Shown here one piece after another: positions 24,307 through 56,712 of a stretch of DNA of 64,000 nucleotides. The notes under the pieces were generated by a model that ran no database searches, had not been told where the DNA came from, and was given only the letters and a program-made list of their open reading frames with translations. This stretch comes from an uncultured Candidatus Rokubacteria bacterium (GTDB lineage Bacteria > Methylomirabilota > Methylomirabilia > Rokubacteriales > DASRDR01). The DNA lies in the NCBI GenBank assembly GCA_963708025.1, contig CAVPSB010000016.1, forward strand, positions 224,001-288,000, given 5' to 3'. The translations under genes and the position numbers were made by a program. Numbering within the stretch: the first letter of the stretch is position 1; each line of letters opens with the position of its first letter.

Positions 24307-24334
24307 GTGCACAGTTTCCTGTGCACCCTGCACA
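24307..24334. promoter_or_regulatory. Putative enhancer (UAS) for a sigma54 activator
   Basis: GTGCAC-N8-GTGCAC overlapping palindrome TGTGCA-CCC-TGCACA; 15/16 identical to the copy at 56595-56610. Confidence 0.6.
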
Positions 24335-24410
24335 TTCTTCCTTTCACCATCGGATGACGAGTAGTCGCCGCAATCCCACGCCGATCCGCGGTGTCCCGCG
24401 ATCGCGGCCC

Positions 24411-24427
24411 CTGGCCGGATTTTTGCT
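24411..24427 (+). promoter_or_regulatory. Putative sigma54 (-24/-12) promoter
   Basis: CTGGCCGGATTTTTGCT: exact GG-N10-GC spacing with TTGCT; 74 bp before ATG 24501. Confidence 0.65.
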
Positions 24428-24500
24428 CGGGCCCTCGGTCGCACCTGGCCTCACGGCCGGGTGGTGACTCCAGGCCCGATTCACCGGGGAGGGTCCCGCG

Positions 24501-25727
24501 ATGACATCGGCCGCTCGGATCGCCTCTGCCGCTCTCTTCGTCCTCGCGCTCACGCCGCCGGCTCCGCTCCGGGCCGAGCCGCTCGCCCCTGTCTTCGGCC
24601 CGAAGCAGTTCGTGCGCGAGCGCGGCCGGCCCGATCGGGCCACGGAGCACTTTCCCGCCTGCCGCCCCGATCGGACCTTCCGACTGCAGCTCGAGAACGG
24701 TCCCGGGCCCCGCCACCGCGTTGACGAGGCGGAGATCCGCCTCAACGGCGTCACGGTGGTCCACTCGCGCGACTTTCACCACCGGGATCACCACCATCGG
24801 GATGCGGTGATCGAGCGGCGGGTGACCCTGCGGGCCGAGAACACGCTCAGCGTCAAGCTCGACGGGCGCCCGGGCAGCGCGGTGAGCGTGCGCATCGTCG
24901 CGAAGACGCCGTGCCTGGAGGTGTCGCTCACCTCCCCCGAGGCCGGCGCCACGCTGGACTCCCCGCTGGCCCTGGTCGAGGGCGTGGTTCGTGGCGCGGC
25001 GGACGCCACCGTCGCCGTCAACGGCGTCCCCGCCGCCGTCCAGGGCGAGCGGTTCACGGCGCTGATTCCCGTCGACCCCGCGATGACCGAGGTCGTGGCG
25101 GTCGCGACGGCCCCCGACGGCATCACGGCGGACGCTCGCCGGTCCGTGACCGTGGTGCAGGCGCCCGAGCCCCGCCTGGTGTTCCGAGCCGTGCCCGCCG
25201 CGGGACCGCCGCCGCTCAGCGTGCGCTTCGTCATGGCAACGGAGCTCCCGGTCACCCAGGTCGTCCTGGACCTCGGCGACGGCCGGAGCGTGACGAACCC
25301 GGTCCTGGATTCGGAGCTGTTCGAGTACGCGCAGCCCGGGCGCTATGCCCCGCGGCTCACCGTGACCGACTCCTCCGGCGCCACCAGCACCGCCACCGCC
25401 GTCGTGGAGGTCGTCGATCGGGCCGCCTTCGACGCGGCTTTGCAGGTCCAGTGGAGCGGGCTGAAGGACGCGCTGCGTCAAGGCGACCTCAACGGCGCCC
25501 TGGGCGCCATCGCCACCGGTGCCCGGGACCTCTACCGGGAGCTGCTCGGCGCCCTGACCGTCCCGCTGAGCCAGATCGATCAGGTTCTGACCGACATCGC
25601 CCTCGTGGATTTCGACGAAATTCAGGCCGAGTACGAGATGCTCCGGGTCGACAATGGCGTCGCGATGTCGTACCTCGTCCTGTTCACCCGGGACGCGGAC
25701 GGGGTCTGGCGGCTCAGGTTCTTCTGA
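24501..25727 (+). CDS. Secreted Ig-like/PKD-domain protein with conserved C-terminal domain
   Basis: Signal peptide; Ig-like segment (SLTSP...VAVNGV); PKD (LDLGDG...YAQPGRYAPRLTVTD); C-terminus W..LK.ALR.GD...FTRDADGVWRL. Confidence 0.8.
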   Translation: MTSAARIASAALFVLALTPPAPLRAEPLAPVFGPKQFVRERGRPDRATEHFPACRPDRTFRLQLENGPGPRHRVDEAEIRLNGVTVVHSRDFHHRDHHHRDAVIERRVTLRAENTLSVKLDGRPGSAVSVRIVAKTPCLEVSLTSPEAGATLDSPLALVEGVVRGAADATVAVNGVPAAVQGERFTALIPVDPAMTEVVAVATAPDGITADARRSVTVVQAPEPRLVFRAVPAAGPPPLSVRFVMATELPVTQVVLDLGDGRSVTNPVLDSELFEYAQPGRYAPRLTVTDSSGATSTATAVVEVVDRAAFDAALQVQWSGLKDALRQGDLNGALGAIATGARDLYRELLGALTVPLSQIDQVLTDIALVDFDEIQAEYEMLRVDNGVAMSYLVLFTRDADGVWRLRFF

Positions 25728-25764
25728 GGCCGGCCAGCCCGTTCGCCAAGGGGAGGGAGACGAG

Positions 25765-26600
25765 ATGCCGTCGGACAGCCTGAGGGTTGGCACCGGAGTC
25801 CCTGCGCGCCACGAGCGGCGCCAGGCCAGGGCACCAGGGCTTCTGCTCGCCGCCCTGGTGCTGCTGCTCCTCGGCCGGCCCGACGCGCTGGCCGCGGCGC
25901 CGGCCTGCCCGCCCTTCGCGCTCGAGAAGAGCTGGCTGGTCATCTTCGACGGGGGGAAGTCCAGCCCCGCGCAGCGCCGCGCGCTCGAGGACAGCGGCGT
26001 CGTCCGGGGCCTCCCGGTCGGCCTCTGGCCCCCGAGCGGCCCCGCCCCGCTCACGGTGGGCCTGGTCTGGATCGCGCGGGAGGAGCGCGCGCAGTCCGTG
26101 GAGATGGACGCCGACGGCGACGGGGTGCCGGAGGTGGTCGACACCCGCGACGAGGCCTTCGGTCACACCTACCAGAAGCCGGGGCACTACCCGGCGACCA
26201 TCCGCGTCCGCGACGCGCAGGGCGAGGTCCGGACCTTCAAGAGCCCGGTCACCGTGCTCACCCCCGCCGCCTTCGACGCCCAGCTCCAGGGCCTCTGGGC
26301 CGCGCTCAAGGAGGCCGTGCGCCGGGGCGACTTCGAAGCCGCGCTCGAGTGCGTGGCCAGCCCAGGACCGCCCGCGCACCGACGGGCTGCTGCGCTCGCT
26401 GCCGCGGGCCGACCTGGAGAAGGCGCTGCCCGCGATCCGCTTCGTCGAGTTCCGCGTCGTCCAGGCGGTCTACGCGAGCGTCCGCCCGCCGGACTGGGGC
26501 AAGGGCCCCCTGCCGGTGCCGCTCGAGGTCCGCTTCGCGCCCGACATGGATGCCGTCTGGCGGATCACCCGGATCCAGGCTCAAGGAGGCCGACCAATGA
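25765..26600 (+). CDS. Second secreted PKD-domain protein with paralogous C-terminal domain (frameshift near 26362)
   Basis: MDADGDG...HTYQKPGHYPATIRVRD; AFDAQLQGLWAALKEAVRRGD; second frame ends VRFAPDMDAVWRI. Confidence 0.7.
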
Positions 26601-27115
26601 CCCGGCGGCGTGGCGTCTTCCTGGCCGTCCTCCTCGCAGCGATGAGCCTCGCGGGCTGGATCGACCCGGCCGCGGCGGCCGGCCCCTGGCGCGGCCAGGT
26701 CGTCGACGCCGAGACCGGCAAGCCGCTGGAAGGCGTCGTCGTCCTGGCGCAGTGGGACAAGCTCTCCCCGGGGCGATCCACCGCGGCTCGCGACTTCTAC
26801 GACGTGGACGAAGTCGTGACGGACGCCGACGGCCGCTTCGTGATCCCGGCGCGCCGCGTGCTCACCGTCAATCCCTTCGTGAGCCTCGACGGCCCGATCC
26901 TCCACATGTTCAAGCCAGGCTACGGACCAGGGCTGGAGCAGGGTTTGCCACAATACTCAGACATCGACGACGTCCGTCGTTTGATGGAGACGCAAGGCGT
27001 GGTCTTCGCGATGACGCCCCTCAAGACTTGGGCGGAGCGCCGAAGGTCATTGCCGCCGCTTCCAGTCGATGGTTCCCGACGCACTGATGCCTCGGATTCA
27101 CCGCGCCATCGATGA
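26597..27115 (+). CDS. Secreted carboxypeptidase-regulatory-like (beta-sandwich) small protein
   Basis: AAGGAGG RBS, signal peptide MTRRRGVFLAVLLAAM, RGQVVDAETGKPLEGVVV...TDADGRFVIP...FKPGY; 3' end may be frameshifted. Confidence 0.7.
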   Translation: MTRRRGVFLAVLLAAMSLAGWIDPAAAAGPWRGQVVDAETGKPLEGVVVLAQWDKLSPGRSTAARDFYDVDEVVTDADGRFVIPARRVLTVNPFVSLDGPILHMFKPGYGPGLEQGLPQYSDIDDVRRLMETQGVVFAMTPLKTWAERRRSLPPLPVDGSRRTDASDSPRHR

Positions 27116-27172
27116 ATGAACGGAGATTCCTCCGGTCCTCGCCCTAAAGAGTCGCGCTGGAGGGCCAAGTCC

Positions 27173-29470
27173 ATGAAGACGGTCATGGGTCGGCATACTG
27201 TTAGCTACTTCGCCCTTGCTGAACGCCCCGGCTTGTTTTCGGCGTACGATCTTCAAGCTCACGCGGCCATCACCGCCGTCGCAATCCCAGTAGTTTGATT
27301 CTCGTCGTGGACCAAGTTCTACTCCAGTTGGGTTCTGCCGGATGGCGCCGGCACCAAGTTCGGCAACAGTGAGATGGGAGTCAGAACAGCCCGGAACTGG
27401 ATCCAGGATTCGGCGCTGCGAGCGAGGACATACCAGACATCCGGGTTGTGAATCACTTTCACAACCCGCTCGCCAACGACTTGGAGCGGTGGCCGGTCTT
27501 CGCGTCCTCGGCACTCAGCCGGGCCAGTCTTCCGTCATCTGGCAGCAGAATCCGCGCAGAGCACGGGGACGGGCGGCGATAGTGGAACGTGGTCGTGGCC
27601 GACGCCCGGCAATGCTACTTCGAAGCCCTCACCTCTCGGAGCGAGGCCGAGCGGAACAGCGCCTTCGCACGGCTCTTCCGCTCCCTCGGCCAGGTGATGC
27701 ATCTGCGTCCAGGACGCCTCGCTCCCCGCTCACACTCGGAACGACCCGCATCTCTACAAGGTGGTGTTCGGCCTGGACCTCGGCAACCCCGACCGCTACG
27801 AACGGTGGGTGGACAAGCTCAAGTCGAACCGAGCTCGCGGCCCGTCCTCGAGTCGGCCCCCCGTCCACCCGTCCGAGCGCGTGTTCTCCCGGATCGGCAC
27901 GACCGCGACGGATCGACCGGGCCGCCGCCCCGGCGCCGGTCTCCGCGCTCATCGACACCGGCCAGTACGATGGCACGAATCCAGATGTGACCGCCACCCC
28001 GTCCGATGGGCGACCGGTCATCGGGCTGGCCGAGTACTCGAACGCCAACTTCTTCTCCAACGACACCATCTTCGCCGACACCCCGGCGCTGTTCGGCGTC
28101 CGCCCCTTCCCTTCCAGCCAGAGCCTGGAGCTCGGGCCCCTCGAGCCGGCTCCGGGCGCACGGGGCTGGCAGCGGCGCTACATCCTGAAGGCGCGCCATG
28201 GCGACACGATGGTCAGCGATCCCTCGGGCGCGACGCGCCGTTATCGCCTCGCCCTCCCCGGCGCCCTCTACGACTACCTTCCCGACGCCGTCAAGGCGCG
28301 CGACTCCACGATCGACGAGAAGGTGCTCGAGGACTACGCCGCTCTGCTGCTCCCCCGTGCGGTTGGCTACTCGACCGCGCTGATCGACCACTTCTTCCGC
28401 GGCCAGCTCGAGGCCTACTTCGTTCCCGTCGCGGGAGCCTTGCGCCCGGCGCTGCGGATCGTCAATCGCGCGGACGGCGAGCGCCTCGCGGGCACCTTCA
28501 GCCTCCACTACGACGCCCCCGACGGTATCCGGGTCCGTCTCGGCGGCTGGGACAACATCGGCCTCGCCCCGGGCGCCGCCTCCGCCCCGCTCGCCGTCCC
28601 CGACTTCTCGCCCTCCGAGCCCCCGCCCGCCGAGCCGGGCCGCTACCTGCTCGTCTTCCGCGGCCACTTCGGCGACGAGCCCGACGCCGTCGTCGCCACC
28701 CCGCTCGACGCCCGGGTCTGGACCCTGGAGTCCTCCGTGTTCCAGCGGGAGCGCTCCGGTCTCGTCACCGGCTATCCCTACTTCACCTCCTGGCTGCTGG
28801 ACACGAAACCCCAGCTGAACACCTACGCTTCGCTCTACGATCCCATGGACTCTCTTCGACGGCACCGCCCTCCGTCTCTTCGCCGGCAATGGCGCTTCGG
28901 AGAAGCCTCGAATACCTCTTCCAGTGTGAAGGCGACAACTACGTCCCCTTCATCTCGAGCACGCTCCCCGGTCACGGCTTCAGCTACGCCGCGTGGTATC
29001 GGGGTCCCGCCGCCTTCCGCCCCACGACCGTGCGGCTGCTCGGCACCGGGAGGGTCGAGACGCTGGTTCCCGAGGGCCAGGGCTACACCAGCATCTACGG
29101 CCCGGCCGTCCTCGATGTCGTACGCTTCAGGCCGCCTGAGTCCCCGGGCGAGCTTCAGGGTTACTCCGCCCTCAATCCTCCGACGGTCGAGGCCGTCCTT
29201 GCCTCTTTCTCCGTCGAGAGCATCGACCCGATCGATCTCGGGACCATCGACTTGGGCGACGCCCCGTTCATCGGAATCCGCCTCCGTTCAGTCCCCCTCG
29301 GGGAGCCGGCGCGCCTGAGCACCTCCGGCGCGGGCGGTTTCCTCGACTCCATCTGCTTTCACCAGATCCTGCTCCGCTACGGGCCAATCTCCGGCATCCA
29401 CTACGGTGGCTTCTTCGCCAACAGCGCGGTCGGCTGGGTTGACATGCAGATCCTGCCCGGCGCCCAGTAG
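27173..29470 (+). CDS. Large protein with N-terminal Zn-phospholipase C/P1-nuclease-like domain (multiple frameshifts)
   Basis: Across frames: AYD..AH, NHFHNP, LGQVMHL-VQDASLPAHTRNDPH, RYERW, GLAEYSNANFFS, DYAALLLPRAVGYS..LIDHFFRG. Confidence 0.65.
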
Positions 29471-29524
29471 AGACTGTTTCACGCCAGGCGGCAGCACGCG
29501 ACGGCGGTCCCGCGCCGCCAGGCT

Positions 29525-30626
29525 TCAGGCCATCACCACGATGGCGCGGCCGGTGATCTCGCCGCGGTCGAGGGCGCGGTAGGCCTCCTCGGCCTGGTCG
29601 AGGCGGTAGCGGCGCGTGATGGGCTGGGTCACGCTGATGCGGCCGCTGGCCGCCAGGGCGATGAGCTGCGGCATGTCCCGGCGGACCCGGGCGCCGTAGG
29701 AGCCCTGGAGCCGGATCCCGCGCCGGACGAGGTGCGTGATCTCGATCGGCGCCGCCGTCTGGCCGGGCGCGATCCCGATGACGACGGCGCGGCCGCCGTC
29801 CCGCACCATGCGGAACGCCGCGGCCACCGTCTCGGCCCGGCCCAGCGCCTCGAAGGCGACATCGACGCCTTCCCCGCCGGTCAGCCGCCGCACCTCCGCC
29901 ACGGCGTCGCCGGCCGCGGCGTTCACCCCGTCGGTGGCCCCGAGCGCCCGGGCCGCCTCGAGCTTCTCGGCCCGGACGTCCACCGCGATGATGCGGGCGG
30001 CGCCGGCCACGGCGCGCGAGCTGGATCACGTTGGAGCCGACCCCGCCCGTCCCGACGACCGCCACCGTCTCCGCCGGGCGGAGCGCCGCCTGGTGGGTCA
30101 CGGCGCCGTAGGCCGTCATGATGGCGCAGCCGAGGATGCAGGCCGCCTCCAGCGGGAGCCCGGCCGGGACGCGGAAGACGTCGGTGGCCGGCACCACGCA
30201 GTACTCGGCCAGCCCGGCCATGCTGTACATGGCGAGCGGGCTCCCGTCGGCGCGCTGGAGCCGGCTCTCGCCGTCGTAGAGCACGCCCTTGAGCCGGTTC
30301 AGCGCGAAGAACGGCTCGCAGAGATCGTCCCGCCCTTCGACGCAGAACCGGCAGCGCCCGCACGGCATGATGAACGAGGCCACCACCGGGGCGCCGGCCT
30401 CGAGGCCGGTGACCCCGGGGCCCACCGCCTCGACGAGGCCGGAGACCTCGTGGCCGAGCACGGCGGGGACCGGGAAGCGGACTTCTCCCTTCATCACGTG
30501 GAGATCGGTGTGGCAGACGCCGCAGGCGCGGACCCGGAGCAGCACCTCGCCGATCCGCGGCTTGGGCGCGGGGATCTCCTCGATCGCGAGCGGAGCCCCG
30601 ACCGCGGGCAGGACGGCAGCCTTCAT
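29525..30626 (-). CDS. Zn-dependent alcohol dehydrogenase (frameshift near 30010)
   Basis: GVCHTD, LGHE, CGRCRFC...C, VVGTGGVG, GRAIV. Confidence 0.9.
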
Positions 30627-30777
30627 GAGAACCTCCTCATCTTTCCTGGCGGTTTGCCCCAGCCTAGATGACCCGAAGGCTCTTGACAATCCGTGGCAAG
30701 CGGGTCGTAATTGGTCCCACCGGCTGTACCCAGACTCCTCAACCCCGACCCCCGGTATCCATGGAGGAACACCAACG

Positions 30778-31690
30778 ATGGCGGAGCAACCCGGTCCGAG
30801 TCGCCGAGACTTCCTGAAGACCCTGGGCGTGACCGTGGGCGGCGCCGCGGCCGCCGGCGCGGCCGCGCCCCTGGCCGTTCCGGCCCTGGCCCAGGCGCAG
30901 ACCCCGGCCCAGCCCAAGGGCACCATCCCCGACAAGCCGTTCAAGGTCGGCCACATGACCTTCCATTCCGGGGCGGCGGCGGTCCTCGGGGAGCCCATGT
31001 ACAAGGGCCATATGCTGGCGGCCGACGAGATCAACGCCGCCGGCGGCCTGCTCGGCAAGCGGAAGATCGAGACGCTGAAGGCCGACGAGGCGGCCGGTCT
31101 CGACGCCAACGTGAAGGAGCTCCGGCGGATGAAGCTGTCGGAGAACATCGACTTCTTCACCGGCATCACCTCCAGCGCGCACACGCCGGCCCTCGGCCCG
31201 GTGGCCGAGGAGCTGAAGATCCTGACGATCTTCGTGGACGGCTGCACCGACAACCTGTTCGACAAGGCGGTGCCCAACCCCCACTACATCTTCCGGATCA
31301 CCAACATCCAGTCGGCCGACGGAGTCACCTGCGCCGTCGCCATCGCCCAGACCTGGGGAAGCGCCAAGAAGATCGCCCACATCCATCCCGACTACTCCTA
31401 CGGCCGCAACGCCTTCGACCACCTCAACATCGCGATGAAGAAGCTCATGGGGAACGTCGAGGTGGTGTCGGAGGGCTGGCCGAAGCTCGGAACGACAGAC
31501 TTCACCTCCCACATCACCAAGGCGATCTCGGCCAAGCCCGACCTGCTGGTCTCGTCGGTGTGGGGCGGCGACTACGTCGCCTTCTACAAGCAGGCCCTCC
31601 GCTATGACACGTTCAAGAAGATGAAGTTCGCGAGCACGATCGCCTTCGGGGTGGCGCCCCACGCGATCGGCAAGGACCACCCGGAAGGGG
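30778..31690 (+). CDS. Tat-exported branched-chain amino acid (LivK-like) binding protein, C-terminally truncated
   Basis: SRRDFLK Tat motif, ADEINAAGGLLG, DYSYG, DFTSHITK; similarity appears to stop after DHPEG. Confidence 0.8.
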
Positions 31691-31699
31691 CGCGGCTTC

Positions 31700-32990: not shown

Positions 32991-33060
32991 CGACAGGCCG
33001 GGACGACCGGCCCGAGATCCTCGCTGCTCACACGCCATGGACGATCGGCCAGCACGATCG

Positions 33061-33972
33061 ATGGACACCCTGCTGATCCACGTGCTCAACTCGCTGCTCT
33101 GAGCGCCGTCCATCCTGTTCCTGATCGCGGGCGGGCCTCAGCCTGATCTACGGCGTGATGCGGATCGTGAACCTCGCTCACGGCAACCTGTACGCCTTGG
33201 CGGCGCTGTACATGATCGGCGTGGACGGTGGGGATCGGCCCTCGGCGAGAGCTACGCTGGCGAGCGCGACGCCGAGCCCGCTTGCTCTACCTGCTCCTGC
33301 CCGTCCGGAGCGATCGCCGCCGCCGCGCTCGGCGCCATGCCTCGAGCCGACGCTCCTGCGCCCGCTCTACGAGCGCGCCGAGGAGTACCAGCTCCTGATC
33401 ACCTTCGGGCTCCTCCTGATCCTCGACGACCTGATGCGCCTGCATCTGGGGCCCGACGCCGCTCTCGGCCAGCGCGCTCTACGAGGCGCCGGGCAGCATC
33501 GCGATCGGCGAGGCCATCTACCCGAGGTACAACCTCATCGTCATCGTCGTGGGCGGCGTGACGGCGGCGGCCCTGTGGGCGTTCGTCTACAAGACCAAGT
33601 TCGGCGTCATCCTGCGGGCGACGTCCCAGAACATGCGGATGGCCTCGGCCCTGGGGGTCAACGTCAACCAGGTGCTACGTGCCAGGCCTTCGACGCTGGG
33701 CTGCTTCATGGCCGGGCTGCGGGGGGGCCATCGTCATGCCCCAGCAGGGCGCGGTGCTGGGCATGGGCGTCGACGCGCTGATCCTGGCCTTCGTCGTGGT
33801 GGTCATCGGCGGGCTCGGCAGCCTGGAAGGGGCGCTGCTCGGAGCCCTGATGGTCGGGATCGTGCGGGAGCTGGGCATCGCCTTCTTCCCCGAGATCGAG
33901 CTGGCGGTGCTCTACCTGATGGCGGCCGTCGTCCTCCTGGTCCGGCCGGCCGGCCTCCTCGGGCGCGCCTGA
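33061..33972 (+). CDS. livH: Branched-chain amino acid ABC permease LivH (frameshifted)
   Basis: GLSLIYGVMRIVNLAHG, TKFGVILRATSQN..MASALGVN, AFVVVVIGGLGS, VRPAGLLG. Confidence 0.8.
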
Positions 33973-33983
33973 GACCTGCCGGC

Positions 33984-34975
33984 ATGAGCCGAGCGCCCTC
34001 GCCCGCCGGCCTGGTCCTCTGGGGGAGGCGCGATCCTCCTCGTCCTGCTCGGGCTCCCCTTCGTGATCCCCCCTACCAGACGGTGCTGCTCTCCTACGGG
34101 CTCGTCTTCGCGATCGCGGCGCTCGGCTTCAATCTCCTGCTCGGCTACACGGGGCTCCTCTCCTTCGGCCACTCGGCCTACTTCGGGATGGGCACCTACG
34201 CCGTCGCGTTCCTGGTCAAGTACCTGAAGGTGACGTCGATGGAGGCCTACGTGCTCGGCCGGCATGCTGGCCTCGGCCGGGCTGGCCGCGCTCTTCGGCT
34301 TCTTCTGTGTCCGCTACACCCGGATCTTCTTCGGCATCCTGACCCTCGCCCTCTCCCAGGTGCTCTGGAGCCTGATCTTCAAGTTCTACAACCTCACCGG
34401 CGGGCTCCGACGGCCTGCGGGTGCCGACCCCCGCGCTGCTCGGCGGCATGCTGTCCACCGCCTTCGGCAAGACCGAGGACAAGCTGAGCTTCCTGGCCTA
34501 CCGCTACTACTACTACGTCCTGGTCATCTTCGCCGTGTGCGTCGTGCTCATGTGGGTCATCGTCCACTCGCCGTTCGGCAAGGCGCTCCAGGCCATCCGC
34601 GACAACGAGACCCGGGCGGAGTTCGTGGGGGTTCAGGTGCGCCGCTACCGCTGGCTGGCGTTCCTGGTGTCGGGAGCCTACACCGGGCTGGCCGGCGTGC
34701 TGTGGGTGCCGCTCAACGGGCTGACCACCCCGGACATCCTGCACTGGACCTTCTCGGGCAAGATCGTCTTCTTCACCGTGCTCGGCGGCTTCCAGACCTT
34801 CGTGGGGCCGATCGTCGGCGCCATCGTCTACAACTACCTGGAGACCTACGCGGTCGGCCACACCGTGTACTGGCAGATGGTGCTCGGGGTGGTGCTGGTG
34901 GTCCTGGTGCTGGCGCTGCCGTCCGGCATCGTCGGCACCGCCAGCCGGCTACTCCTCAGGCGCCGCGCGACCTGA
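33984..34975 (+). CDS. livM: Branched-chain amino acid ABC permease LivM (frameshifted)
   Basis: NLLLGYTGLLSFGHSAYFGMG, SPFGKALQAIRDNE.RA, VLGG...GPIVGA. Confidence 0.82.
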
Positions 34976-43610: not shown

Positions 43611-43920
43611 CGCCGCTCCTCCCCGCCGCCGTGGTCAGCGTCAGAAAATTCGGAGGGGCCGCTCCCCTCCCATTTGGATCCCAGCACCCGGATCCCGCGC
43701 ATCGATCGACACGCCTGTCAATGCCCGGCCACCATAGCACGCTCGCCGAAGCGCTCCCAAGAGTTTTCGCCTGGGAGCGAATCCGCGGAGTGGCGCGCCC
43801 CTCGGCGCCCGAAATGTTGGCCGCCCCGCCCTTCCGGGGTAGACTGTGGCGTCGTTCACCTGCCACCCGGGAGGGCCTACCGGTGTCCGTGAGGCATTCG
43901 AGGCATTCGAGGACTCGGTG

Positions 43921-45843
43921 ATGAGCTGGCTGAAGCGGAAGCGGCCGACGTCCACCGACCCCACCTCCGAGTCCAAGGGCCCCCTCACCCCCGATCCCCC
44001 CCCGATGGTAGCGCTTCCCGAGGCCTCCACCCCCCCGACGGAGACCCCGGGCCCCGGCGACAGCGAGGGGGCGGCCGGTCGTGAGCCCGCCCTCCGGCTC
44101 GAAGACATCATGCGGGTCCAGGCGGTCACCGCCAGCCTCCTGACCAAGAAGGTCACCCCCCGTGAGCTGTTCCGCCACATCGTCAACGGCGCGGCGGACT
44201 GCCTGAACGCCGACGAGGCCTCCCTCATGCTCGTCGAGGGCGAGGAGCTGCGGGTGGTGTCGGCCCGGAAGGCGGGCGAGCACATCACGGTGCGGATCGG
44301 TCGGATCAAGATCGGCGAGGGGGTGGCGGGCTGGGTCGCCCGCGAAGGCCAGGCCCTCCTCCTCAACGAGGGCGACGACTTCTCTCGGTTCACCAACTTC
44401 ACGCCCAAGGGCGGGCGCATCACCTCCGCCGTCTCGGTGCCGCTCCACGTCGAGGGTCGCGTGGTCGGCGTCCTGAACGCGAACCGCCTGGCCGGGGCCG
44501 AGAGGTTCACCTCGGAAGACGTCGCCGTCCTCCGGCTCTTCGCCGACACCGCGGCGCTGGCCATCGACCAGACGAACCTCCTGCAGACGGTCCAGACGCG
44601 GGCCCGGTCGCTCCAGACGCTCTTGTCTGTCACCGACGCCTTCGCGTCGGCGAACGATCCCGACGCGGCGCTCGTCAGGCTGATGCCAGGGCTCGGCGAG
44701 ACCTTCCACCCGACGCTGGTGCTGGCGTTCCTCGGCTCCGCGGCGGCGGGCGGACTCCCCGCCGTGGCGGAATGGACCCCTCGGGGGGGCCCGGGGGCGG
44801 CCGACCGGCTCGCGGGAATCAGCCTGACGACGACCGGCGAGGTGACGGCGGCGTTCCAGGCCAGCGGGCCGGCCTACCTCACCGTCCCCCCGCTCCAGGG
44901 CAATGTCGCCCGCCACACCCTCCTCCCGGCCCGCCTGCTGCTGGTCCCGGTCGGGGCCCTCGACACGCCGTCCCGGTGCGCGCTGCTGCTGGGCTGGGAA
45001 GACCCGATGTTCGCCGTGCCGGCCGAGGACCTGAACGTGCTGGAAGGCCTGGCCCGCCAGCTCGACATGGCGCTCTCGCATCAGGATCGGACCGCGGCGG
45101 TGGATGCGCTCGAGGCCGAGATGGCGCAGGCCCGCGCGCACCTCATGGAGGCGGAGCGGCTGGCGACCGTGGGCCAGAGCATGGCCGGGGTCGTCCACGA
45201 CATCAACGCGCCCCTGACGGCCGTCACCGCCTTCGCGCAGCTCATCCAGAAGGAGTCGTCGGACGAGAAGAGCCGCGAGCGGGCCGGTCACATCATGGAG
45301 GCGGCGACGCGGGCGCAGCGGCTGGTCCGCGAGCTGCTGAAGATGGCTCGGCCGCAGCCGCCGACCTTCGAGCTGGTGCAGCTCCACCAGCTCCTGCAGG
45401 TCGCCATGGATCTCGAGCGCCCGCAGTGCGCCGTGTCCGGGATCAAGCTGGTGGCCGCCTTCGATCCCGCGCTGCCCCAGGTCAAGGCCGATCCCCACCG
45501 GCTGGGTCAGGTCTTCATCAACCTGCTCGTCAACGCGCGCCAGGCCATGGATTCGGCCGAGAAGGGCACCTCGATCACCGTCCAGACCCGGCGGCTCGAG
45601 CGCGTGGTGGAGATCCGCTTCACGGACGACGGCCCCGGGATCCCGCCGGCCATCAAGCAGAAGATCTTCGACTGGTTCTTCACGACCAAGCCGCCGGGCG
45701 AAGGCACCGGACTGGGCCTCGCGGTCTCCCGGGAGATCCTCCTCGCCCATGGAGGCAACCTCCGGGTCGAGGACACGGTCGACGGCGGCGCGACCTTCAT
45801 CCTCGATGTCCCGCTGCCGGAAGCCGGCAGCCCTACCCGCTAG
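43921..45843 (+). CDS. GAF-domain sensor histidine kinase
   Basis: GEGVAGWV GAF, second degenerate GAF, VVHDINAP, NARQA, DDGPG, FFTTK, GTGLGL. Confidence 0.92.
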   Translation: MSWLKRKRPTSTDPTSESKGPLTPDPPPMVALPEASTPPTETPGPGDSEGAAGREPALRLEDIMRVQAVTASLLTKKVTPRELFRHIVNGAADCLNADEASLMLVEGEELRVVSARKAGEHITVRIGRIKIGEGVAGWVAREGQALLLNEGDDFSRFTNFTPKGGRITSAVSVPLHVEGRVVGVLNANRLAGAERFTSEDVAVLRLFADTAALAIDQTNLLQTVQTRARSLQTLLSVTDAFASANDPDAALVRLMPGLGETFHPTLVLAFLGSAAAGGLPAVAEWTPRGGPGAADRLAGISLTTTGEVTAAFQASGPAYLTVPPLQGNVARHTLLPARLLLVPVGALDTPSRCALLLGWEDPMFAVPAEDLNVLEGLARQLDMALSHQDRTAAVDALEAEMAQARAHLMEAERLATVGQSMAGVVHDINAPLTAVTAFAQLIQKESSDEKSRERAGHIMEAATRAQRLVRELLKMARPQPPTFELVQLHQLLQVAMDLERPQCAVSGIKLVAAFDPALPQVKADPHRLGQVFINLLVNARQAMDSAEKGTSITVQTRRLERVVEIRFTDDGPGIPPAIKQKIFDWFFTTKPPGEGTGLGLAVSREILLAHGGNLRVEDTVDGGATFILDVPLPEAGSPTR

Positions 45844-46268: not shown

Positions 46269-47543
46269 CTACCGCGGAGCCGGCGCCGCCGGCATCGCGA
46301 CCCGCAGCACCTCCTCCAGCGTGGTCAGCCCGCGGACGACCTTCCCGAGGCCGTCGTCGAACAGCGTCGGGAGCCGGGCGCCTCGCACCGCCTCGTGAAA
46401 CTGGCGGCCGCCCGCCTCGCGCGCGAGGAGGTCCCGGGTCTTGTCGTCGAGCGGGAGCAGCTCGTAGATCCCGGTCCGGCCGAGGTACCCGGTGTGCCGG
46501 CAGCGCGCACAGCCTCGGCCGCGGACGAGCGTGTCGCCCGCCTCGCGCAGGAGCGGCAGCTCGGCCTGCAGCGCCGAGGGGACCTCGGCCGGGATCCGGC
46601 AGGCTGGGCAGACGAGACGGACCAGCCGCTGGGCGACGACGCCGATCGTCGAGGCGGCGAGCAGGTAGGGATCGACCCCGAGGTTCACGAGGCGCAGGAT
46701 CGCGCTGGCCGCGTCGTTGGTGTGCATGGTGCTCAGCAGGAGGTGCCCGGTCAGCGAGGCGCGGACGGCGACGTCGGCTGTCTCGGCGTCGCGGATCTCG
46801 CCCAGCATGACGATGTTCGGGTCCTGCCGGAGGATCGCGCGAAGCGACCCGGCGAAGGTGAGCCCGACCCGCTCGTTGATCTGGATCTGGTTGATCCCGG
46901 CGATCTCGTACTCGACCGGATCCTCGACGGAGATGATGTTGAGGTGCTCCGACCGAAGCCGGTGGATGCAGGCGCGAAGCGTCGTGGTCTTGCCGCAGCC
47001 GGTCGGCCCGGTCACGAGGATCATCCCGTGCGAGTGGCCGAGCATCGCGCCGACCAGCGCGAGCTGCGTCTCGTCGAAGCCCAGCTCCTCGAGCGCCAGG
47101 AGTCCGCGCCCGGACTCGAACAGCCGCAGCACGACCTTTTCCCCGTGCCGGCAGGGCAGCGTGGAGACGCGCAGGTGCGCCTCCCCGCCGGGCGCCCGCA
47201 GGCGGATGTGGCCGTCCTGCGGCACCCGGCGCTCGGCGATGTCGAGGTTGGCCATGACCTTGATCCGGGAGACAACCGCCGCGTGGAGGGCCAGCGGCAG
47301 CTCGCGGCTCGTGACGAGGAAGCCATCGACGCGCGTCCGGACCAGCATCCGATCCGCGTGCGGCTCGATGTGGACGTCGCTGGCGCCCTCGGCCAGGCCC
47401 TGGCGGATCAGGTCGTCCACGATGCGGATCACCGGCTCGGCGACGTCGAGGCGGACCGGCGGCGCGGCCGCGCGAGGCGGCCGGCCGTTGGCCGGCGGAG
47501 CGGCCGGGGGCGTCGGAGGCGCGACGTCCGAGGATTGGGCCAT
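46269..47543 (-). CDS. GspE/PilB-family secretion ATPase lacking the N-terminal domain
   Basis: ASDVHIEP, LDIAERRVPQDG, TGPTGCGKTT, EDPVEY, LRQDP..GEIRD, STMHTN, two CxxC pairs. Confidence 0.92.
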   Translation of the reverse strand: MAQSSDVAPPTPPAAPPANGRPPRAAAPPVRLDVAEPVIRIVDDLIRQGLAEGASDVHIEPHADRMLVRTRVDGFLVTSRELPLALHAAVVSRIKVMANLDIAERRVPQDGHIRLRAPGGEAHLRVSTLPCRHGEKVVLRLFESGRGLLALEELGFDETQLALVGAMLGHSHGMILVTGPTGCGKTTTLRACIHRLRSEHLNIISVEDPVEYEIAGINQIQINERVGLTFAGSLRAILRQDPNIVMLGEIRDAETADVAVRASLTGHLLLSTMHTNDAASAILRLVNLGVDPYLLAASTIGVVAQRLVRLVCPACRIPAEVPSALQAELPLLREAGDTLVRGRGCARCRHTGYLGRTGIYELLPLDDKTRDLLAREAGGRQFHEAVRGARLPTLFDDGLGKVVRGLTTLEEVLRVAMPAAPAPR

Positions 47544-47799
47544 GCCGGTTCCCGATGCACGCGAAGTGCCCGCCGCCGAGCGCGGGCTGGCGTGCATTCC
47601 GGCGCGGCGGCCGGTCCCGGCCGGTACACGCTGTCGACGAAGACTGACGGCGATCGGCGCGGGGACTACGCGAGAAAGGTCGGAAAGCCGATGGCCGGGA
47701 TGCTACAGCGGGGGGCCAGCCGGGTCACAGACGGGCTCCGTAGACAGAGGGGCTCGTAGCACCTGGCCCCCGCCGCCCAGCCCTCATGGGGCCGCCGGT

Positions 47800-47975: not shown

Positions 47976-48563
47976 CATGCGTGAGTCCCTGGGGGTCACG
48001 GAGGACCGGGCGCCGGAGCGGCCCGACCCGCGCCCTCGCGCGCTCACGCGGATGTCGGCACGGGTCCGGACGGAGTCCGCGTCCGTGTACGCCCCGTATC
48101 GGTCCCTGAACACGGCGCGTCGGCGCGTGCGGCCTCCGCGGACTGCAACCGCGCCACCGAACAGCGAACCCCGGTGCGGCGCCCGCCGGGCATGGTCCCG
48201 CGCTCGCGCCGCGGCCGATGCCTGCGTCGTGCGCCGCCCTGCCGAGTACGAGCTCCGCATGCCCGAAACGTCGATCCTCGGCATGATGGGAAAGCGCTTG
48301 CCGAGAAAGCGAACCGCGCTGCAGCATGGCGCGCTTGGCGGCGGAGTGCCGATACGGTCGTCTGAAACGGCGAGCCCGGCGCGCCCCGGCCCGCCCGCTG
48401 AGCGCGGCGAGCCGCAGCAGCCGGACGCGGACCCGTGCCCCATCGCCGACGTCAGGTGGCTCGATCCTTGCTGGTCCACCCCCCTTTGACTCAGTATCGG
48501 CGCGGATGCCGAGGGCGGGCCCCCCCTCGGCTGCTGGCGATCCCATACCCACGAGGAGGCGAC

Positions 48564-51787: not shown

Positions 51788-53122
51788 GTGCTCATCGCTC
51801 GGTCACGACTTGTCCGCCAGGCGCCGTGGTTGGTGTTGCTCAGCCTGATCGGGCCCCCGAGCCTCACGATGGCTGCTCAACTCACGCTCACCTGGACCGA
51901 CAACGCTGGCAACGAGAGCGGCTATCGGGTGGAGCGTAAGATCGGCAGCGGCGGCAGCTACAGTGAGATCGCCGTCCTTGCCGCCAACACTACGGCCTAC
52001 ACCGATCCCAACGTTGCGGCGTCCACGACGTACTGCTACCGCGTGCGCGCCTTCAACGCGGCGGGCGTGTCCGGCTACTCCAACGAAGCGTGCTCGGCGA
52101 CGGCCCAGGGCACACTCAACCTCACCGTGACAAAGTCTGGGGCCGGCAGCGTCAGTAGCTCGCCCGGTGGCATCAACTGCGGAAGCGACTGTACCGAAGC
52201 CTTTCCGAGCGGGGCCGTCGTGACACTGACGGCGACACCAAGCGCCGGCTCCCGGTTCGATGGGTGGAGCAGTGGCGGGTGCGCGGGTACGGGATCGTGC
52301 ACGCTGAGCGGCAATGGGAGCCCGATGGTCACCGCCACCTTCACGGCGACCGGCGCCAGTTGCCCGACCGGACAGTTCCGGGCCGAATACTTCAACAACA
52401 CGACCCTGGCCGGCGCTCCCGTGCTGACGCGCTGCGAGGGGCCGATTCAGTACGAGTGGGGCGCTGGAGGCCCGGGAGGCGGGGTCGCTGTCAACCAGTT
52501 CTCGGTCCGTTGGACCGGACGATTCGACTTCGTCGCTGCGACATATGTGTTCGGCGCACGCGCCGACGATGGCGTCCGAGTGTGGGTAGACGGTACCCAG
52601 GTGATCGCGGCCTGGCGAGACCAGCTAGCGACGACGTATCAGGCCACTCGCGCCATGACCGCTGGTTCTCACGAGGTACGCATGGAGTACTATGACAATA
52701 ATGGTGTCGCGACGGCCTCGCTGGGGTGGCAAGCCCAGGCTGCCAGCAGTTGCCCGACCGGACAGTTCCGGGCCGAATATTTCGGCAACCTCACGCTGAG
52801 CGGACCACCGGCGTTCACACGCTGCGAGACGAGTGTCCAGCATAACTGGAGCTCCGGAGGGCCCGGTGTCGGGCTCGCGTCCGACTTCTTCTCAGTACGC
52901 TGGACGGGCCGATTCGCGTTCGCTGGCGGCAACACGACCTTCACAGTGCTCGCTGACGACGGGATCCGACTTTGGGTTGACGGCACCCCGGTCATCGATG
53001 CGTGGAATGATCAGGGGACGACGACGTACAAGGCGACACGCAGCCTGACCAGCGGTCAGCACGACATTCGCGTCGAGTACTATGAGCGGACCGGGCAGGC
53101 ACTGATACAGATCAACTGGTAG
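51788..53122 (+). CDS. Secreted FN3 + InlB-B-repeat-like + 2x PA14 protein
   Basis: LTWTDN..NE.GY...YCYRVRAFN (FN3); GINCGSDC...FDGWS; two CPTGQFRAEYF...FSVRWTG...ADDG.R.WVDG...EYY repeats. Confidence 0.88.
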   Translation: MLIARSRLVRQAPWLVLLSLIGPPSLTMAAQLTLTWTDNAGNESGYRVERKIGSGGSYSEIAVLAANTTAYTDPNVAASTTYCYRVRAFNAAGVSGYSNEACSATAQGTLNLTVTKSGAGSVSSSPGGINCGSDCTEAFPSGAVVTLTATPSAGSRFDGWSSGGCAGTGSCTLSGNGSPMVTATFTATGASCPTGQFRAEYFNNTTLAGAPVLTRCEGPIQYEWGAGGPGGGVAVNQFSVRWTGRFDFVAATYVFGARADDGVRVWVDGTQVIAAWRDQLATTYQATRAMTAGSHEVRMEYYDNNGVATASLGWQAQAASSCPTGQFRAEYFGNLTLSGPPAFTRCETSVQHNWSSGGPGVGLASDFFSVRWTGRFAFAGGNTTFTVLADDGIRLWVDGTPVIDAWNDQGTTTYKATRSLTSGQHDIRVEYYERTGQALIQINW

Positions 53123-53192
53123 CCCGGCCGCGGCTCCCAGCGGAGCGGCCCACACTGGGGGCTCGACCGATGACGGCCTCCAGGGCGGCCCG

Positions 53193-54038
53193 TCACGCCC
53201 TGATCCGGGCGACGACCTCGTCCCACACCCACCGCGTGCCCGCGGCGCTCGGGGGAATCGGGCAGTTGAAGATCAGGTGGGTGGCGCCGGCGCCGATGAA
53301 GCCGCGGGCCAGACCCACGATGTCACCCTGCATCGCCGCCGGCAGGAACTGGATCGAGCGCTCGATCTCCGCCGGATCGCGACCGATCTCGCGGCAGTAC
53401 TGGTCGAGCAGCACGGACTTCTTCGCGAAATCGTCGGGCGTGGCGCGGGCCATGTTCCAGGTCTGGGCGTGTCGGGCGGCGATGCGCAGGCCGACTCGCT
53501 CGCCGCTCGTGCCGATCACCAGCGGCGGATGCGGCTGCTGCACCGGCTTGGGCTCGTGGACGGCCTCGCGGATCTGATAGTAGGCGCCCTCGAAGCTCGC
53601 GCGCGGCTGCGTCCAGAGAGCCTTCAGGATCTGGCAGGCTTCCTCCAGTCGCCGCATGCGCTCGCCCAGCGCCGGCAGCGGGAGCCCGTACTGCCGGTGC
53701 TCCTCCTCGAACCACCCGGCGCCTAGCCCGACCTCCACCCGGCCGTTGGAGACCACGTCCACCGTCGTCGCGATCTTGGCGAGCAGGGCGGGGTGCCGGA
53801 AGGTGTTCGCGGTGACCATCAGCCCGCCGCGGATTCGCCGCGACTGGACGAGCAACGCGGTGAGCACCGTCCACCCCTCGTTCTGCGGTTTCGTGGGGTC
53901 GAGGTTGAGCAGGTGGTCGTGGGCCCAGGCCGTGTCGAATCCGACGCGATCGGCCTCGAGCCAGGCCTCTCGCATCTGGGGGTACGTCCCGTCCATCTGG
54001 GTGACCTTGAGGCCGAAGCGGAGCCGTCTCGAGGGCAC
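53193..54038 (-). CDS. LLM-class (F420-type) oxidoreductase
   Basis: RFGLK, WAHDHL, FRHPALLAKIATTVD..SNGR.EVGLGAGW, PKPVQQPHPP. Confidence 0.9.
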   Translation of the reverse strand: MPSRRLRFGLKVTQMDGTYPQMREAWLEADRVGFDTAWAHDHLLNLDPTKPQNEGWTVLTALLVQSRRIRGGLMVTANTFRHPALLAKIATTVDVVSNGRVEVGLGAGWFEEEHRQYGLPLPALGERMRRLEEACQILKALWTQPRASFEGAYYQIREAVHEPKPVQQPHPPLVIGTSGERVGLRIAARHAQTWNMARATPDDFAKKSVLLDQYCREIGRDPAEIERSIQFLPAAMQGDIVGLARGFIGAGATHLIFNCPIPPSAAGTRWVWDEVVARIRA

Positions 54039-54058
54039 GCCACCTCCCGATGGCCGGG

Positions 54059-54088
54059 ATGCTACGCCCGGCGAGCGCGAGCGGTCAA
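54059..54088 (-). promoter_or_regulatory. Putative sigma70 promoter of the LLM gene
   Basis: TTGACC-N18-TAGCAT about 20 bp upstream of GTG 54038. Confidence 0.45.
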
Positions 54089-54249
54089 CCGGTCGGCGGT
54101 GACCGGCGTGCCATCGGCCCGGCCTGACGGCCCGAATGTACCGGACCCGGCTGGGTCGAGCTCGCGCCGGATACCCCACGAGGCGGACCACCGGCTCGGC
54201 GACCTCGGGGCGGCCGGCCTGACGCCGCGCGGCGCGTATACTACGCGGG

Positions 54250-55518
54250 ATGAGCGCGCAGGCCGAGCCGATGGCGAGGGACCGGACGCGCTGGCTCTGG
54301 TCCCTGCTCGGCGCGGGCCGCGTGCCGCCCGCCGCCCGACCGAAGCTCGGGATGGTCGCCCTGCTCTACTTCATCCAGGGGAGTCCGGTCAGCGTGCTCT
54401 GGGAAGTGCTCCCCGTTTACTTCCGCCTCCAGGGGGTCTCGCTCCGCGCCATCGGCGGCCTCCGGCTCCTGGAGCTGCCGTTCTCCCTCAAGGTGCTGTG
54501 GTCGCCCCTCGTCCAGCGCTTCGGCGATCGCCGGCGCTGGATCTTCGGCTGCATGGTGGTCGTCGCCGCCGTGGCCGTCGTCCTCCCGTGGCCCGACGCC
54601 CGGCACCCGGGGCTCGGCCTCCTGGTGCTCGTCCTCCTCCTCACCACGGCCTCGGCGACCCAGGACATCGCGATCGACTCGTACACGGTGGCCCTGGTCG
54701 ATCCGCCCGAGCAGGGCGCGGCCAACGGGGTGCGCGCCTCGGCCTACCGGGTGGCGCTCGTCCTGCTCGGGGGCGGCATGGTCACGCTCGCCGCCTGGCT
54801 CTCCTGGTCCCTCCTGTTCGGCGCCGCCGGTCTCGTGTTCCTCGCCCTCGGGCTCGGCGCGCTGCGCCTCCCGCGCCTTCCGATCCCGCCCGAGGCCCGC
54901 ACGCGCTGGCTCTCGCCCTTCGTCGGCTGGATCGGGACCTGGCGGGCGCTGCCCCTGATTGGCTTCGTCCTCTGCTACAAGCTGGGCGAGTTCGCGCTGG
55001 GCCCGATGGCCAAGCCCTTCTGGGTGGACCGGGGCCGGTCGCTGGTCGAGATCGGCGTGGTGCCCACGACCCTGGGCATCGTCCTGTCGATCGCCGGCGC
55101 CCTCGCCGGCGGCGCCTTCATCAGCCGCTACGGCGTCCTCACCGGGGTGTGGGCCCTCGGCGCGCCGCAGGCGCTCTCGAACCTCGGCTACGCGGCGGTG
55201 GCCGCCTGGGATCTGCCCTGGCCCGCCCTCTACGCCGCCTCCATGATCGACTCGTTCGCGGGCGGGCTCGGCACCGCGGCCTTCCTGGCGCTGCTGATGA
55301 GCGTCTGCGACCGCGATCACGCGACGATTCAGTACGCCTTTCTCTCCTCGCTCTTCTCCCTCACCGGCCGGCTGGCCGGTGCGGTCAGCGGCATCGGCGT
55401 CGAGCGCTGGGGCTACGCCGGGTATTTTGCCTTCACGTTCTGGCTCGCGCTTCCGGCGTACGCCCTCCTGCCGTGGGTGGCGGGGTGGATCCGCGACCGC
55501 GCGGAGCGTCCCGAATGA
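54250..55518 (+). CDS. ampG: AmpG-family muropeptide MFS transporter
   Basis: LKVLWSPLV, ASATQDIAIDSY, YKLGE, ATIQYAFLSSL; overlaps nagZ (ATGA). Confidence 0.88.
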   Translation: MSAQAEPMARDRTRWLWSLLGAGRVPPAARPKLGMVALLYFIQGSPVSVLWEVLPVYFRLQGVSLRAIGGLRLLELPFSLKVLWSPLVQRFGDRRRWIFGCMVVVAAVAVVLPWPDARHPGLGLLVLVLLLTTASATQDIAIDSYTVALVDPPEQGAANGVRASAYRVALVLLGGGMVTLAAWLSWSLLFGAAGLVFLALGLGALRLPRLPIPPEARTRWLSPFVGWIGTWRALPLIGFVLCYKLGEFALGPMAKPFWVDRGRSLVEIGVVPTTLGIVLSIAGALAGGAFISRYGVLTGVWALGAPQALSNLGYAAVAAWDLPWPALYAASMIDSFAGGLGTAAFLALLMSVCDRDHATIQYAFLSSLFSLTGRLAGAVSGIGVERWGYAGYFAFTFWLALPAYALLPWVAGWIRDRAERPE

Positions 55519-56558
55519 CACCCCGGCCGGGGGAGGCGCTGGCCGTCGGGTTCGACGGCACCGCGCTCCCCGAGGACGTGGTCGCGCTCGCCGAGCGCGC
55601 GGGGCTCGGGGGTGTCGTCCTCTTCACGCGGAACTGCCCGACCCTCGAGGCCGTCCTCGCCCTGACCGCGGCCGCCCGGCGTCTCGGTCCCGACGTCCTC
55701 GTGCTGGTCGATCACGAGGGGGGGCGGGTCCATCGCCTGCCGCCCCCATTCACGCGCTTCCCAGCGGCCGCCGTCGTGGGACGGGCCGGCGACCCGGCCC
55801 TCGCCGCCGCCGTCGCCCGAGCGATGGCACGGGAGCTGAGAGCCGCCGGCTTCGACTCCGGGCTCACGCCCGTGGTCGACTGCCTGACCGAGGCCGCCAG
55901 CACCGCGATCGGCGACCGCGCCTTCGGGCGCGATCCGGAGCTGGTGGCCGCCTGCGGGGCGGCTTTCGTCGGCGCCGCGCTGGCCGAGGGCCTGATCCCG
56001 GTCGCCAAGCACTTCCCCGGGCACGGCCGGACCGCGGTGGATTCGCACCTCGAGCTCCCCGAGATCGACGCGACGGTGGACGGTCTCGAGGCCGTCGAGC
56101 TGGTCCCCTTCCGCCGCGTGCTCGCCGCCGGCTGCCCGGCCGTGCTGGTGGCTCACGCCCGCTACCCCGCGCTCGACCCCGCGTGGCCCGCCTCGCTCTC
56201 ACCCGTCGTGATCGAGGAGTGGCTGCGGCGCCGGCTCGACTTCGGGGGTCTGGTCGTGAGCGACGACCTCGAGATGCACGCGGTGGCCCTGCGATGGGGC
56301 GTGGCGGGGGCGGCCGTCCGGTTCCTGGAGGCGGGAGGCGACCTCGCCCTCGTCTGCCGGGAGCCCGAGGGACGGGAGGCCGCGGTCGCCGCGATCCAGA
56401 CCGCCGTCGAGGCCGGGCACCTGTCGCTGGTGGGGGCGGTGACGCGCCGCCGGACCCTCCGGGCCCTCCAGAGGAAGCCGGCTCCGGCGGTGGGGGTCAT
56501 CGGCTGCGCGGAGCACCGGGCGCTGGCCGAGGAGGTCGCCCGGCGGGGCGCCGCGTGA
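55515..56558 (+). CDS. nagZ: Beta-N-acetylhexosaminidase (GH3)
   Basis: LFTRN, DHEGGRVHRL, KHFPGHG...DSH, SDDLEM. Confidence 0.92.
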   Translation: MTPRPGEALAVGFDGTALPEDVVALAERAGLGGVVLFTRNCPTLEAVLALTAAARRLGPDVLVLVDHEGGRVHRLPPPFTRFPAAAVVGRAGDPALAAAVARAMARELRAAGFDSGLTPVVDCLTEAASTAIGDRAFGRDPELVAACGAAFVGAALAEGLIPVAKHFPGHGRTAVDSHLELPEIDATVDGLEAVELVPFRRVLAAGCPAVLVAHARYPALDPAWPASLSPVVIEEWLRRRLDFGGLVVSDDLEMHAVALRWGVAGAAVRFLEAGGDLALVCREPEGREAAVAAIQTAVEAGHLSLVGAVTRRRTLRALQRKPAPAVGVIGCAEHRALAEEVARRGAA

Positions 56559-56570
56559 GGCGGGACACCG

Positions 56571-56623
56571 GTGCACGGCCCGCTGTGCACCTCGCTGTGC
56601 ACCTTGCACAGTGCGCAGTGCAC
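56571..56623. promoter_or_regulatory. Putative enhancer (UAS) array
   Basis: Four GTGCAC (56571, 56585, 56597, 56618) including palindrome TGTGCA-CCT-TGCACA. Confidence 0.65.
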
Positions 56624-56695
56624 CCCATCGTCCGGGCTCAGGGTGCCCGGAAGCGAAGTACCCAACGGAATGGCCGTTCCCGCGCTGAATCGCGG

Positions 56696-56712
56696 TTGGC
56701 CCTGCTTTTGCT
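56696..56712 (+). promoter_or_regulatory. Putative sigma54 (-24/-12) promoter
   Basis: TTGGCCCTGCTTTTGCT: exact GG-N10-GC with TTGCT. Confidence 0.65.

Follow-up and report, generated by a model that had tools for sequence, protein, structure and literature searches.

Tandem 18-bp palindromes with sigma-54 promoters at two loci of a Candidatus Rokubacteria genome, and a likely NtrC-family regulator

Two intergenic sites in the window

The stretch of DNA analyzed here, referred to as the window, comprises 64,000 nucleotides of an uncultured Candidatus Rokubacteria genome of 8.17 Mb (C16:224001-288000; C numbers denote contigs), and it carries two sites at which a palindromic, enhancer-like element precedes a -24/-12 promoter of the sigma-54 type (Table 1). 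Both are intergenic, as an earlier reading made from the letters alone (the sequence-only reading) had claimed: site 1 lies between divergent genes, one for an aldehyde:ferredoxin oxidoreductase and the other the first of a cluster encoding PKD-domain proteins, and site 2 follows the stop codon of a GH3/NagZ-like gene, upstream of a ketosynthase-acyl carrier protein-ketosynthase'-histidine kinase (KS-ACP-KS'-kinase) operon. The palindromes described in that reading agree at 15 of 16 positions, lie where it placed them and end, as it had said, 79 bp (site 1) and 88 bp (site 2) before the GG of the promoter; further GTGCAC words adjoin both. It had noticed no copy elsewhere in the window, and there are indeed just two perfect copies of TGTGCA-N3-TGCACA, a third match at 46721 having one mismatch. 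These three matches with at most one mismatch compare with 0.01 expected from 100 shuffles, and in the whole genome the perfect form occurs three times (sites 1 and 2, and C15:226000).

The window contains three copies of the strict promoter word TGGC-N7-TTGCT where 0.16 would be expected, and the genome 90 with both strands counted; the chance of meeting it 60-250 bp from a given point is ~0.002. The genome encodes sigma-54 (a Sigma54_DBD match of 210 bits at C10:153313-153786), as the sequence-only reading requires, and transcription from site 1 would be expected to start near 24437-24439. From the third strict promoter word in the window (48457-48472, + strand) it is 93 bp to an ATG (48565) preceded by a gaggagg ribosome-binding site, and no TGCACAG-type unit is near this word; it may be the sigma-54 promoter of another regulon.

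Table 1. Positions of the two sites, their neighbouring genes, the closest matches to the 18-bp unit and the members of the proposed regulon (window positions unless a contig is named)
Feature	Position	Strand	Details
Site 1, 16-mer	24319-24334		CTGTGCACCCTGCACA
Site 1, perfect TGTGCA-N3-TGCACA	24320-24334		
Site 1, unit 1a	24308-24325		TGCACAGTTTCCTGTGCA; perfect 18-bp palindrome, one of four perfect genome copies; centre 96.5 bp before GG
Site 1, unit 1b	24329-24346		degenerate, 4 mismatches, left half TGCACAT kept; starts 21 bp after unit 1a
Site 1, -24/-12 promoter	24412-24427	+	TGGCCGGATTTTTGCT; GG-N10-GC in TGGC-N7-TTGC context
First gene of PKD cluster	24501-25727	+	408 aa; signal-peptide-like N-terminus and PKD domain (Pfam PKD_4, E 3.6e-06)
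Further coding stretch of PKD cluster	25654-29470	+	frame plot; several frame changes
Aldehyde:ferredoxin oxidoreductase gene	22092-24263	-	divergent, split over two frames (Pfam AFOR_N/AFOR_C)
Site 2, 16-mer	56595-56610		CTGTGCACCTTGCACA
Site 2, perfect TGTGCA-N3-TGCACA	56596-56610		
Site 2, unit 2a	56572-56589		TGCACGGCCCGCTGTGCA; 1 mismatch
Site 2, overlapping weaker unit	56584-56601		3 mismatches; right half CTGTGCA is the left arm of TGTGCA-N3-TGCACA
Site 2, unit 2b	56605-56622		TGCACAGTGCGCAGTGCA; 1 mismatch; centre 84.5 bp before GG
Site 2, -24/-12 promoter	56697-56712	+	TGGCCCTGCTTTTGCT; GG-N10-GC in TGGC-N7-TTGC context
GH3/NagZ-like gene	55473-56558	+	Pfam Glyco_hydro_3; ends just before site 2; context, not a target
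3' remnant of fatty acid desaturase gene	56808-56930	-	faces site 2 promoter; 83% identity over 41 aa to the C-terminus of P0003 (PF00487)
KS-ACP-KS'-histidine kinase operon	57453-62787	+	Pfam; 740 bp after site 2 promoter
18-mers with 0-1 mismatch	C15:225988, C15:226009, C22:4019, C34:72307; window 24308, 56572, 56605		
Proposed regulon locus 1	C15		hybrid kinase gene directly after regulator gene
Proposed regulon locus 2	C22		operon of 43-aa peptide, family-5 solute-binding protein and kinase
Proposed regulon locus 3	site 1		PKD-protein cluster at 24501
Proposed regulon locus 4	site 2		
Candidate regulon locus 5	C11:7031-7149 (L135)		7Fe-type ferredoxin gene

The 18-bp unit, its genome-wide set and a candidate regulator

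An 18-bp palindrome that is rare in the genome, paired with -24/-12 promoters and conserved in relatives underlies both sites. The sequence-only reading was right to see a repeat as the binding element, but the unit it chose was the wrong one: comparison of the C15 copy with those of relatives gave TGCACAG-N4-CTGTGCA as the repeating unit, and TGTGCA-N3-TGCACA is the junction of two such units, with three bases separating the right arm of the first from the left arm of the second. The copy at C15:226000 sits within a dense run of TGCACA, TGTGCA and GTGCAC words. The usual layout is two units 21-22 bp apart (C15, site 1, C22 and C11), site 2 being the exception with a spacing of 33 bp. The 8.17 Mb genome contains four perfect and three one-mismatch 18-mers, and none of the reversed or arm-swapped control patterns. 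These seven occupy five places. At four of these a correctly oriented TGGC-N7-TTGCT follows, its GG lying 84-218 bp downstream of the unit centres (72-218 bp once C11 is counted in). At the fifth place, C34:72307, the one-mismatch unit is solitary, intragenic and without a promoter, and we took it as a chance occurrence and rejected it as a regulon member. Allowing up to three mismatches gave 130 matches, or ~1 per 63 kb. All 18 other genomes of family f1 are likewise enriched in the motif; examples have 21, 17 and 16 matches per strand, where the control has 1. As expected of an enhancer, the elements are dyad-symmetric, comprise at least two sites separated by whole helical turns and stand 70-250 bp before the promoter. 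Both sites are what the sequence-only reading took them to be, enhancers and sigma-54 promoters of one kind, and they belong to a genome-wide set of four to five loci. The C11 locus has tandem units with 2 and 3 mismatches at 72 and 94 bp before a near-consensus TGGCACTCTCGTTGCA; the ferredoxin gene begins ~400 nt past this promoter, with a sigma-70-like element between promoter and start codon, and the arrangement is kept in relative G013 (L162).

The C15 copy of the motif points to a regulator. The units there start 7 bp past the stop codon of a gene (C15:224431-225981; L002:5431-6981) whose product has Response_reg, Sigma54_activat, AAA_lid_14 and HTH_8 domains, and they are followed by TGGCGCGCTCGTTGCT and then by a gene for a 1352-aa hybrid kinase (sCache_3_2, HAMP, PAS, GAF, HisKA, HATPase and REC); the same position directly after the regulator gene is found in relatives. 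Orthologues of 59-83% identity were found in 30 of the 30 relatives searched, where most paralogues reach 43-50%, and there is a second set of matches of 55-62% identity that includes a paralogue in this genome (C13:476985, 56%). We fetched the 20 best orthologue loci. In 17 of them, half-site clusters, a -24/-12 site and an open reading frame (ORF) of 43-59 aa with the invariant core APVIESG come after the gene; among the other three, two end at contig ends and one (G029, L022) has a YcaO-like ORF in place of the peptide. Two tandem peptide genes stand behind the regulator in several genomes of genus g5 (L008, L011, L012, L014, L015, L017). The best NCBIfam match of the regulator was AtoC (485.1 bits against the NF008469 cut-off of 714), and against the NtrC model TIGR01818 it scored 437.4 bits where the cut-off is 558.6; judged by these scores it is an NtrC-family member below every NCBIfam equivalog cut-off. 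From its position and conservation, the C15 protein is likely to be the regulator of the motif set.

The sequence-only reading had suggested looking for a sigma-54-dependent regulator just beyond position 64000, and none was found there: the 8 kb past the window encode histidine kinases only, and the nearest Sigma54_activat matches on the window contig lie ~44 kb after and ~85 kb before the window. The genome as a whole has 40 such matches, some of them in split genes, corresponding to roughly 30 activator genes. The window is unusually dense in GAF/PAS histidine and hybrid kinases (40403-43129, 43846-45843, 60085-62787, and 62843-64000 and beyond, the last in L001).

In relatives the regulator belongs to a conserved module. 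A scan with the peptide alignment, one genome per species, identified 66 loci, nearly all in Candidatus Rokubacteria/Methylomirabilota, of which 62 with at least 400 bp of upstream sequence were kept and four were dropped for lack of it. All 62 have a -24/-12 match, mostly 77-133 bp before the peptide start, and 59 have a regulator orthologue within 700 bp upstream on the same strand. The strict 18-mer with up to three mismatches was found at 27/62 loci and TGCAC-N7/8-GTGCA with up to one mismatch at 38/62, the latter compared with 0/58 equal-sized downstream control stretches. The ~45-aa peptide has one hydrophobic N-terminal segment and no Pfam family match; downstream of its gene are those of a family-5 solute-binding protein (SBP_bac_5) and then an sCache-HAMP-PAS-HisKA-HATPase kinase. 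A predicted complex of the peptide with the solute-binding protein scored 0.02. In the genome studied here the module is split, C22 carrying enhancer, promoter, 43-aa peptide, solute-binding protein and kinase, and C15 carrying regulator, enhancer, promoter and hybrid kinase; over its first 530 residues the C15 protein shares 65% identity with the C22 kinase.

We propose, with a probability of about 0.7, that a single NtrC-family response regulator acts through the enhancers of sites 1 and 2, each of which serves an adjoining sigma-54 promoter. The C15 REC-AAA+-HTH_8 regulator would be phosphorylated by its sCache-type kinase; once phosphorylated it would assemble on the tandem units, and from there it would loop to the sigma-54 holoenzyme and open the promoter. 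The regulon in this genome probably consists of four clear loci and one candidate (Table 1).

Candidate targets at the two sites

At site 1 the 408-aa PKD gene begins ~62 nt downstream of the sigma-54 promoter, and this link is kept in relatives. Homologues of the PKD protein occur in 21/30 relatives; we fetched 19 loci and examined the 13 that had an N-terminal match and upstream sequence, dropping six with a C-terminal match only or a match at the contig start. A unit with up to three mismatches and a TGG-type -24/-12 match, 81-147 bp apart, were present in 11 of the 13, some of which have a second tandem pair further upstream, and the tandem layout of site 1 is seen again in relative L027. 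By eye, the remaining two loci, both of family f2, have a palindrome and a CGGCACG-N4-TTGC element. Because unit and promoter are conserved here while units with so many mismatches occur only about once per 63 kb, we regard the footprint as strong evidence for site 1 being a true target, one that relatives share. On the other side of site 1, the ATG of the aldehyde:ferredoxin oxidoreductase gene is at 24263, and a sigma-70-like promoter (24299-24271, 10/12 matches) adjoins unit 1a.

The products of the cluster gave few matches. The stretch 25654-29470 has weak PKD/CarboxypepD_reg signal only in Pfam, with a paralogous PKD stretch at 26026-26385; a PDB sequence search of the cluster proteins returned one weak PKD-type match and nothing for the other two ORFs, and NCBIfam had no match for the cluster. 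The sequence-only reading had called the cluster PLC-like, a label we drop, no such domain having been found by Pfam, NCBIfam or PDB sequence search. Several genes in this part of the window run over two frames: the aldehyde:ferredoxin oxidoreductase (22092-24263 vs 22424-23149), the site 1 cluster (24501-29470), a Zn-dependent alcohol dehydrogenase (29268-31277 vs 29525-30010) and a branched-chain permease (33549-34487 vs 34421-34975). Such split frames suggest either an indel-prone assembly or many pseudogenes. Elsewhere the window has a T2SSE secretion ATPase (46269-47597, - strand) and a PA14-domain protein (51788-53122).

Site 2 truly belongs to the motif set and equals site 1 in anatomy, with no recognizable product. 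The sequence-only reading had one activator co-controlling both loci; the part that concerns the PKD gene stands, being kept in relatives, but the part that concerns the KS operon is not supported, in view of the 17 of 18 relatives that lack the link, the operon's own AT-rich upstream region and the desaturase remnant in between. Site 2 is probably an orphan, and the KS operon is probably not a target.

The alternative, that the site 2 promoter drives the KS-ACP-KS'-kinase operon through a ~740-nt leader and so couples lipid or polyketide-type synthesis to the PKD cluster, is in our view unlikely. The promoter is directed at the operon with no intact gene between them (the minus-strand ORF there being a desaturase remnant with an unconserved other half), and the C11 ferredoxin gene, with its sigma-54 promoter well before the start codon in this genome and in G013, shows that long leaders occur in the set. 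However, neither a unit nor a paired promoter was found in the KS loci of 17/18 relatives; in 15 of the 18, nagZ lies in the same locus, 160-1000 bp upstream of KS; the operon has its own conserved AT-rich region (57330-57452, common to relative G005); and a terminator-like hairpin with a T run lies on the + strand at 57312-57339. In addition, G005, the only relative of the 18 with a tandem pair and promoter (TGGCCCGCTTCTTGCG) at the same position after nagZ, has between promoter and KS an apparently intact convergent gene, VOC/glyoxalase-like by our reading of its sequence, which the promoter faces.

The spacer between nagZ and KS is 894 bp here and includes a minus-strand ORF (56805-57333), and most relatives have no such spacer. 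We rejected this ORF as a gene: it has no Pfam match, and its last 41 aa alone match the desaturase C-terminus. The rest is not conserved, with one weak match (in another frame) among 20 family genomes; the ORF is a gene remnant. At 56776-56802 a GC-rich palindromic word, GGCGATCCGGATCGCC, has with its flanks many short near-identical matches across relatives' genomes, and it may be a small dispersed repeat.

As to what site 2 produces, a lineage-specific non-coding or antisense RNA has about even odds; read-through into the KS operon is a doubtful possibility, and so, to the same degree, is a silent relic. In three public RNA runs 5-9% of sampled words were present, and contigs cover pieces of KS and, in one run, the end of nagZ, with none covering 56635-57505. 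An Rfam scan of the whole window gave no family at gathering score. The leader does not align with its G005 counterpart past the promoter. A small RNA from site 2 was rejected, there being no unusual fold, no conservation and no G005 alignment. We also rejected site 2 as a decayed peptide promoter and leader; it resembled g5 leaders by eye, and 100 of 200 shuffled sequences aligned locally as well as its best match did, with a score of 23.

Alternatives, known systems and significance

Returning to the proposal that one NtrC-family regulator acts at both sites, several points weigh against it. Site 2 is present in 1/18 relatives' KS loci, and its leader (109 nt past the promoter) folds no better than shuffles (z 0.54) and, short GC-rich words apart, shows no conservation in 20 family genomes. 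The regulator does not adjoin the peptide operon here, unlike in 59/62 relatives. The genome bin is 99.7% complete and 8.2% contaminated, and given this contamination and the indel-prone assembly C15, C16 and C22 may come from more than one cell. The motif could also belong, wholly or jointly, to the 56%-identical C13 paralogue or to one of the roughly 30 other activators. Units in family f2 are 17 bp long at the peptide locus but 18 bp, and different in core, at the PKD locus, and the regulon link may be limited to family f1. Both the motif set and the assignment of the regulator are computational throughout.

Ownership of the motif by another DNA-binding protein, either a paralogous activator such as that at C13:476985 or a repressor, is distinctly improbable. 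The number of activator genes and the closeness of the paralogue leave room for it, the adjacency of regulator and motif is circumstantial, and enteric NtrC also uses TGCAC...GTGCA arms, judging by Table 1 of PMC4987338; but the motif stands directly past the stop codon of the orthologue in many genera, its loose form recurs at 38/62 peptide loci, and contig C13 has no unit with two or fewer mismatches. That the shared words reflect chance or a dispersed repeat without regulatory role can be dismissed, since, although the intragenic unit at C34:72307 shows that strays exist, four perfect 18-mers were seen where we estimate ~0.02 from base composition, the control patterns gave none, TGGC-N7-TTGCT is paired with units at four loci and the arrangement is conserved upstream of homologous genes across genera.

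An enhancer, an NtrC-family activator and a sigma-54 promoter together form a textbook mechanism. NtrC (NR-I), which in Escherichia coli and Salmonella acts at glnAp2 and further sigma-54 promoters under nitrogen control, has the same REC, AAA+ and Fis-type HTH architecture as the C15 protein. In place of glnA and ntrB, however, the latter has as its neighbours a peptide, a solute-binding protein and a kinase that senses the periplasm. The enteric NtrC site is given as TGCACC(A/T)4TGGTGCA in Table 1 of PMC4987338 and as the 17-bp consensus TGCACCAnnnTGGTGCA in PMC8743547. Measured against these, the likeness lies in tandem TGCAC...GTGCA palindromes ~80-220 bp before GG-N10-GC, and the difference in a unit of 18 bp whose arms stand 8 bases apart, not 7, with inner AG/CT rather than C(A)/(T)GG; the unit does not fit the 17-bp TGCACC-N5-GGTGCA that the two papers yield.

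The AtoS-AtoC system of E. coli supplies the best NCBIfam matches of both regulator (AtoC, 485 bits) and kinase (AtoS, 318 bits), and it too combines a membrane-bound HAMP and PAS kinase with a sigma-54-dependent regulator. Both scores are nevertheless far below the equivalog cut-offs (714 and 646), there are no ato genes nearby, and the targets here appear to be a small peptide, PKD proteins and perhaps a ferredoxin. Feedback by a small protein on a sensor kinase is known from MgrB acting on PhoQ and CpxP acting on CpxA. As in those cases, a protein of ~45 aa is encoded in an operon that its own two-component system appears, from the arrangement of motif and genes, to activate; unlike them, it has no sequence relation to MgrB or CpxP, and the wiring runs via sigma-54 and includes a family-5 solute-binding protein.

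Rokubacteria abound in soil and have no cultured members. To our knowledge almost nothing is known of their gene regulation, and a literature search found no paper joining Rokubacteria with sigma-54, two-component systems or enhancer-binding proteins. Here a first reading of a palindrome and a -24/-12 site has been extended by comparative genomics to a regulon, with a defined motif, a named candidate regulator, a conserved core operon and conserved targets, all of which can be tested in a heterologous host without culturing. We speculate further, and regard it as rather unlikely in full, that this is a phylum-wide self-activating circuit, in which the ~45-aa exported or membrane peptide would be a signal or feedback element, sensed by the solute-binding protein and the sCache kinase and relayed by the sigma-54 activator, which would turn on secreted PKD surface proteins and ferredoxin. 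If true, the circuit would be a case of peptide-based cell-cell or envelope-state signalling via sigma-54 in an uncultured phylum.

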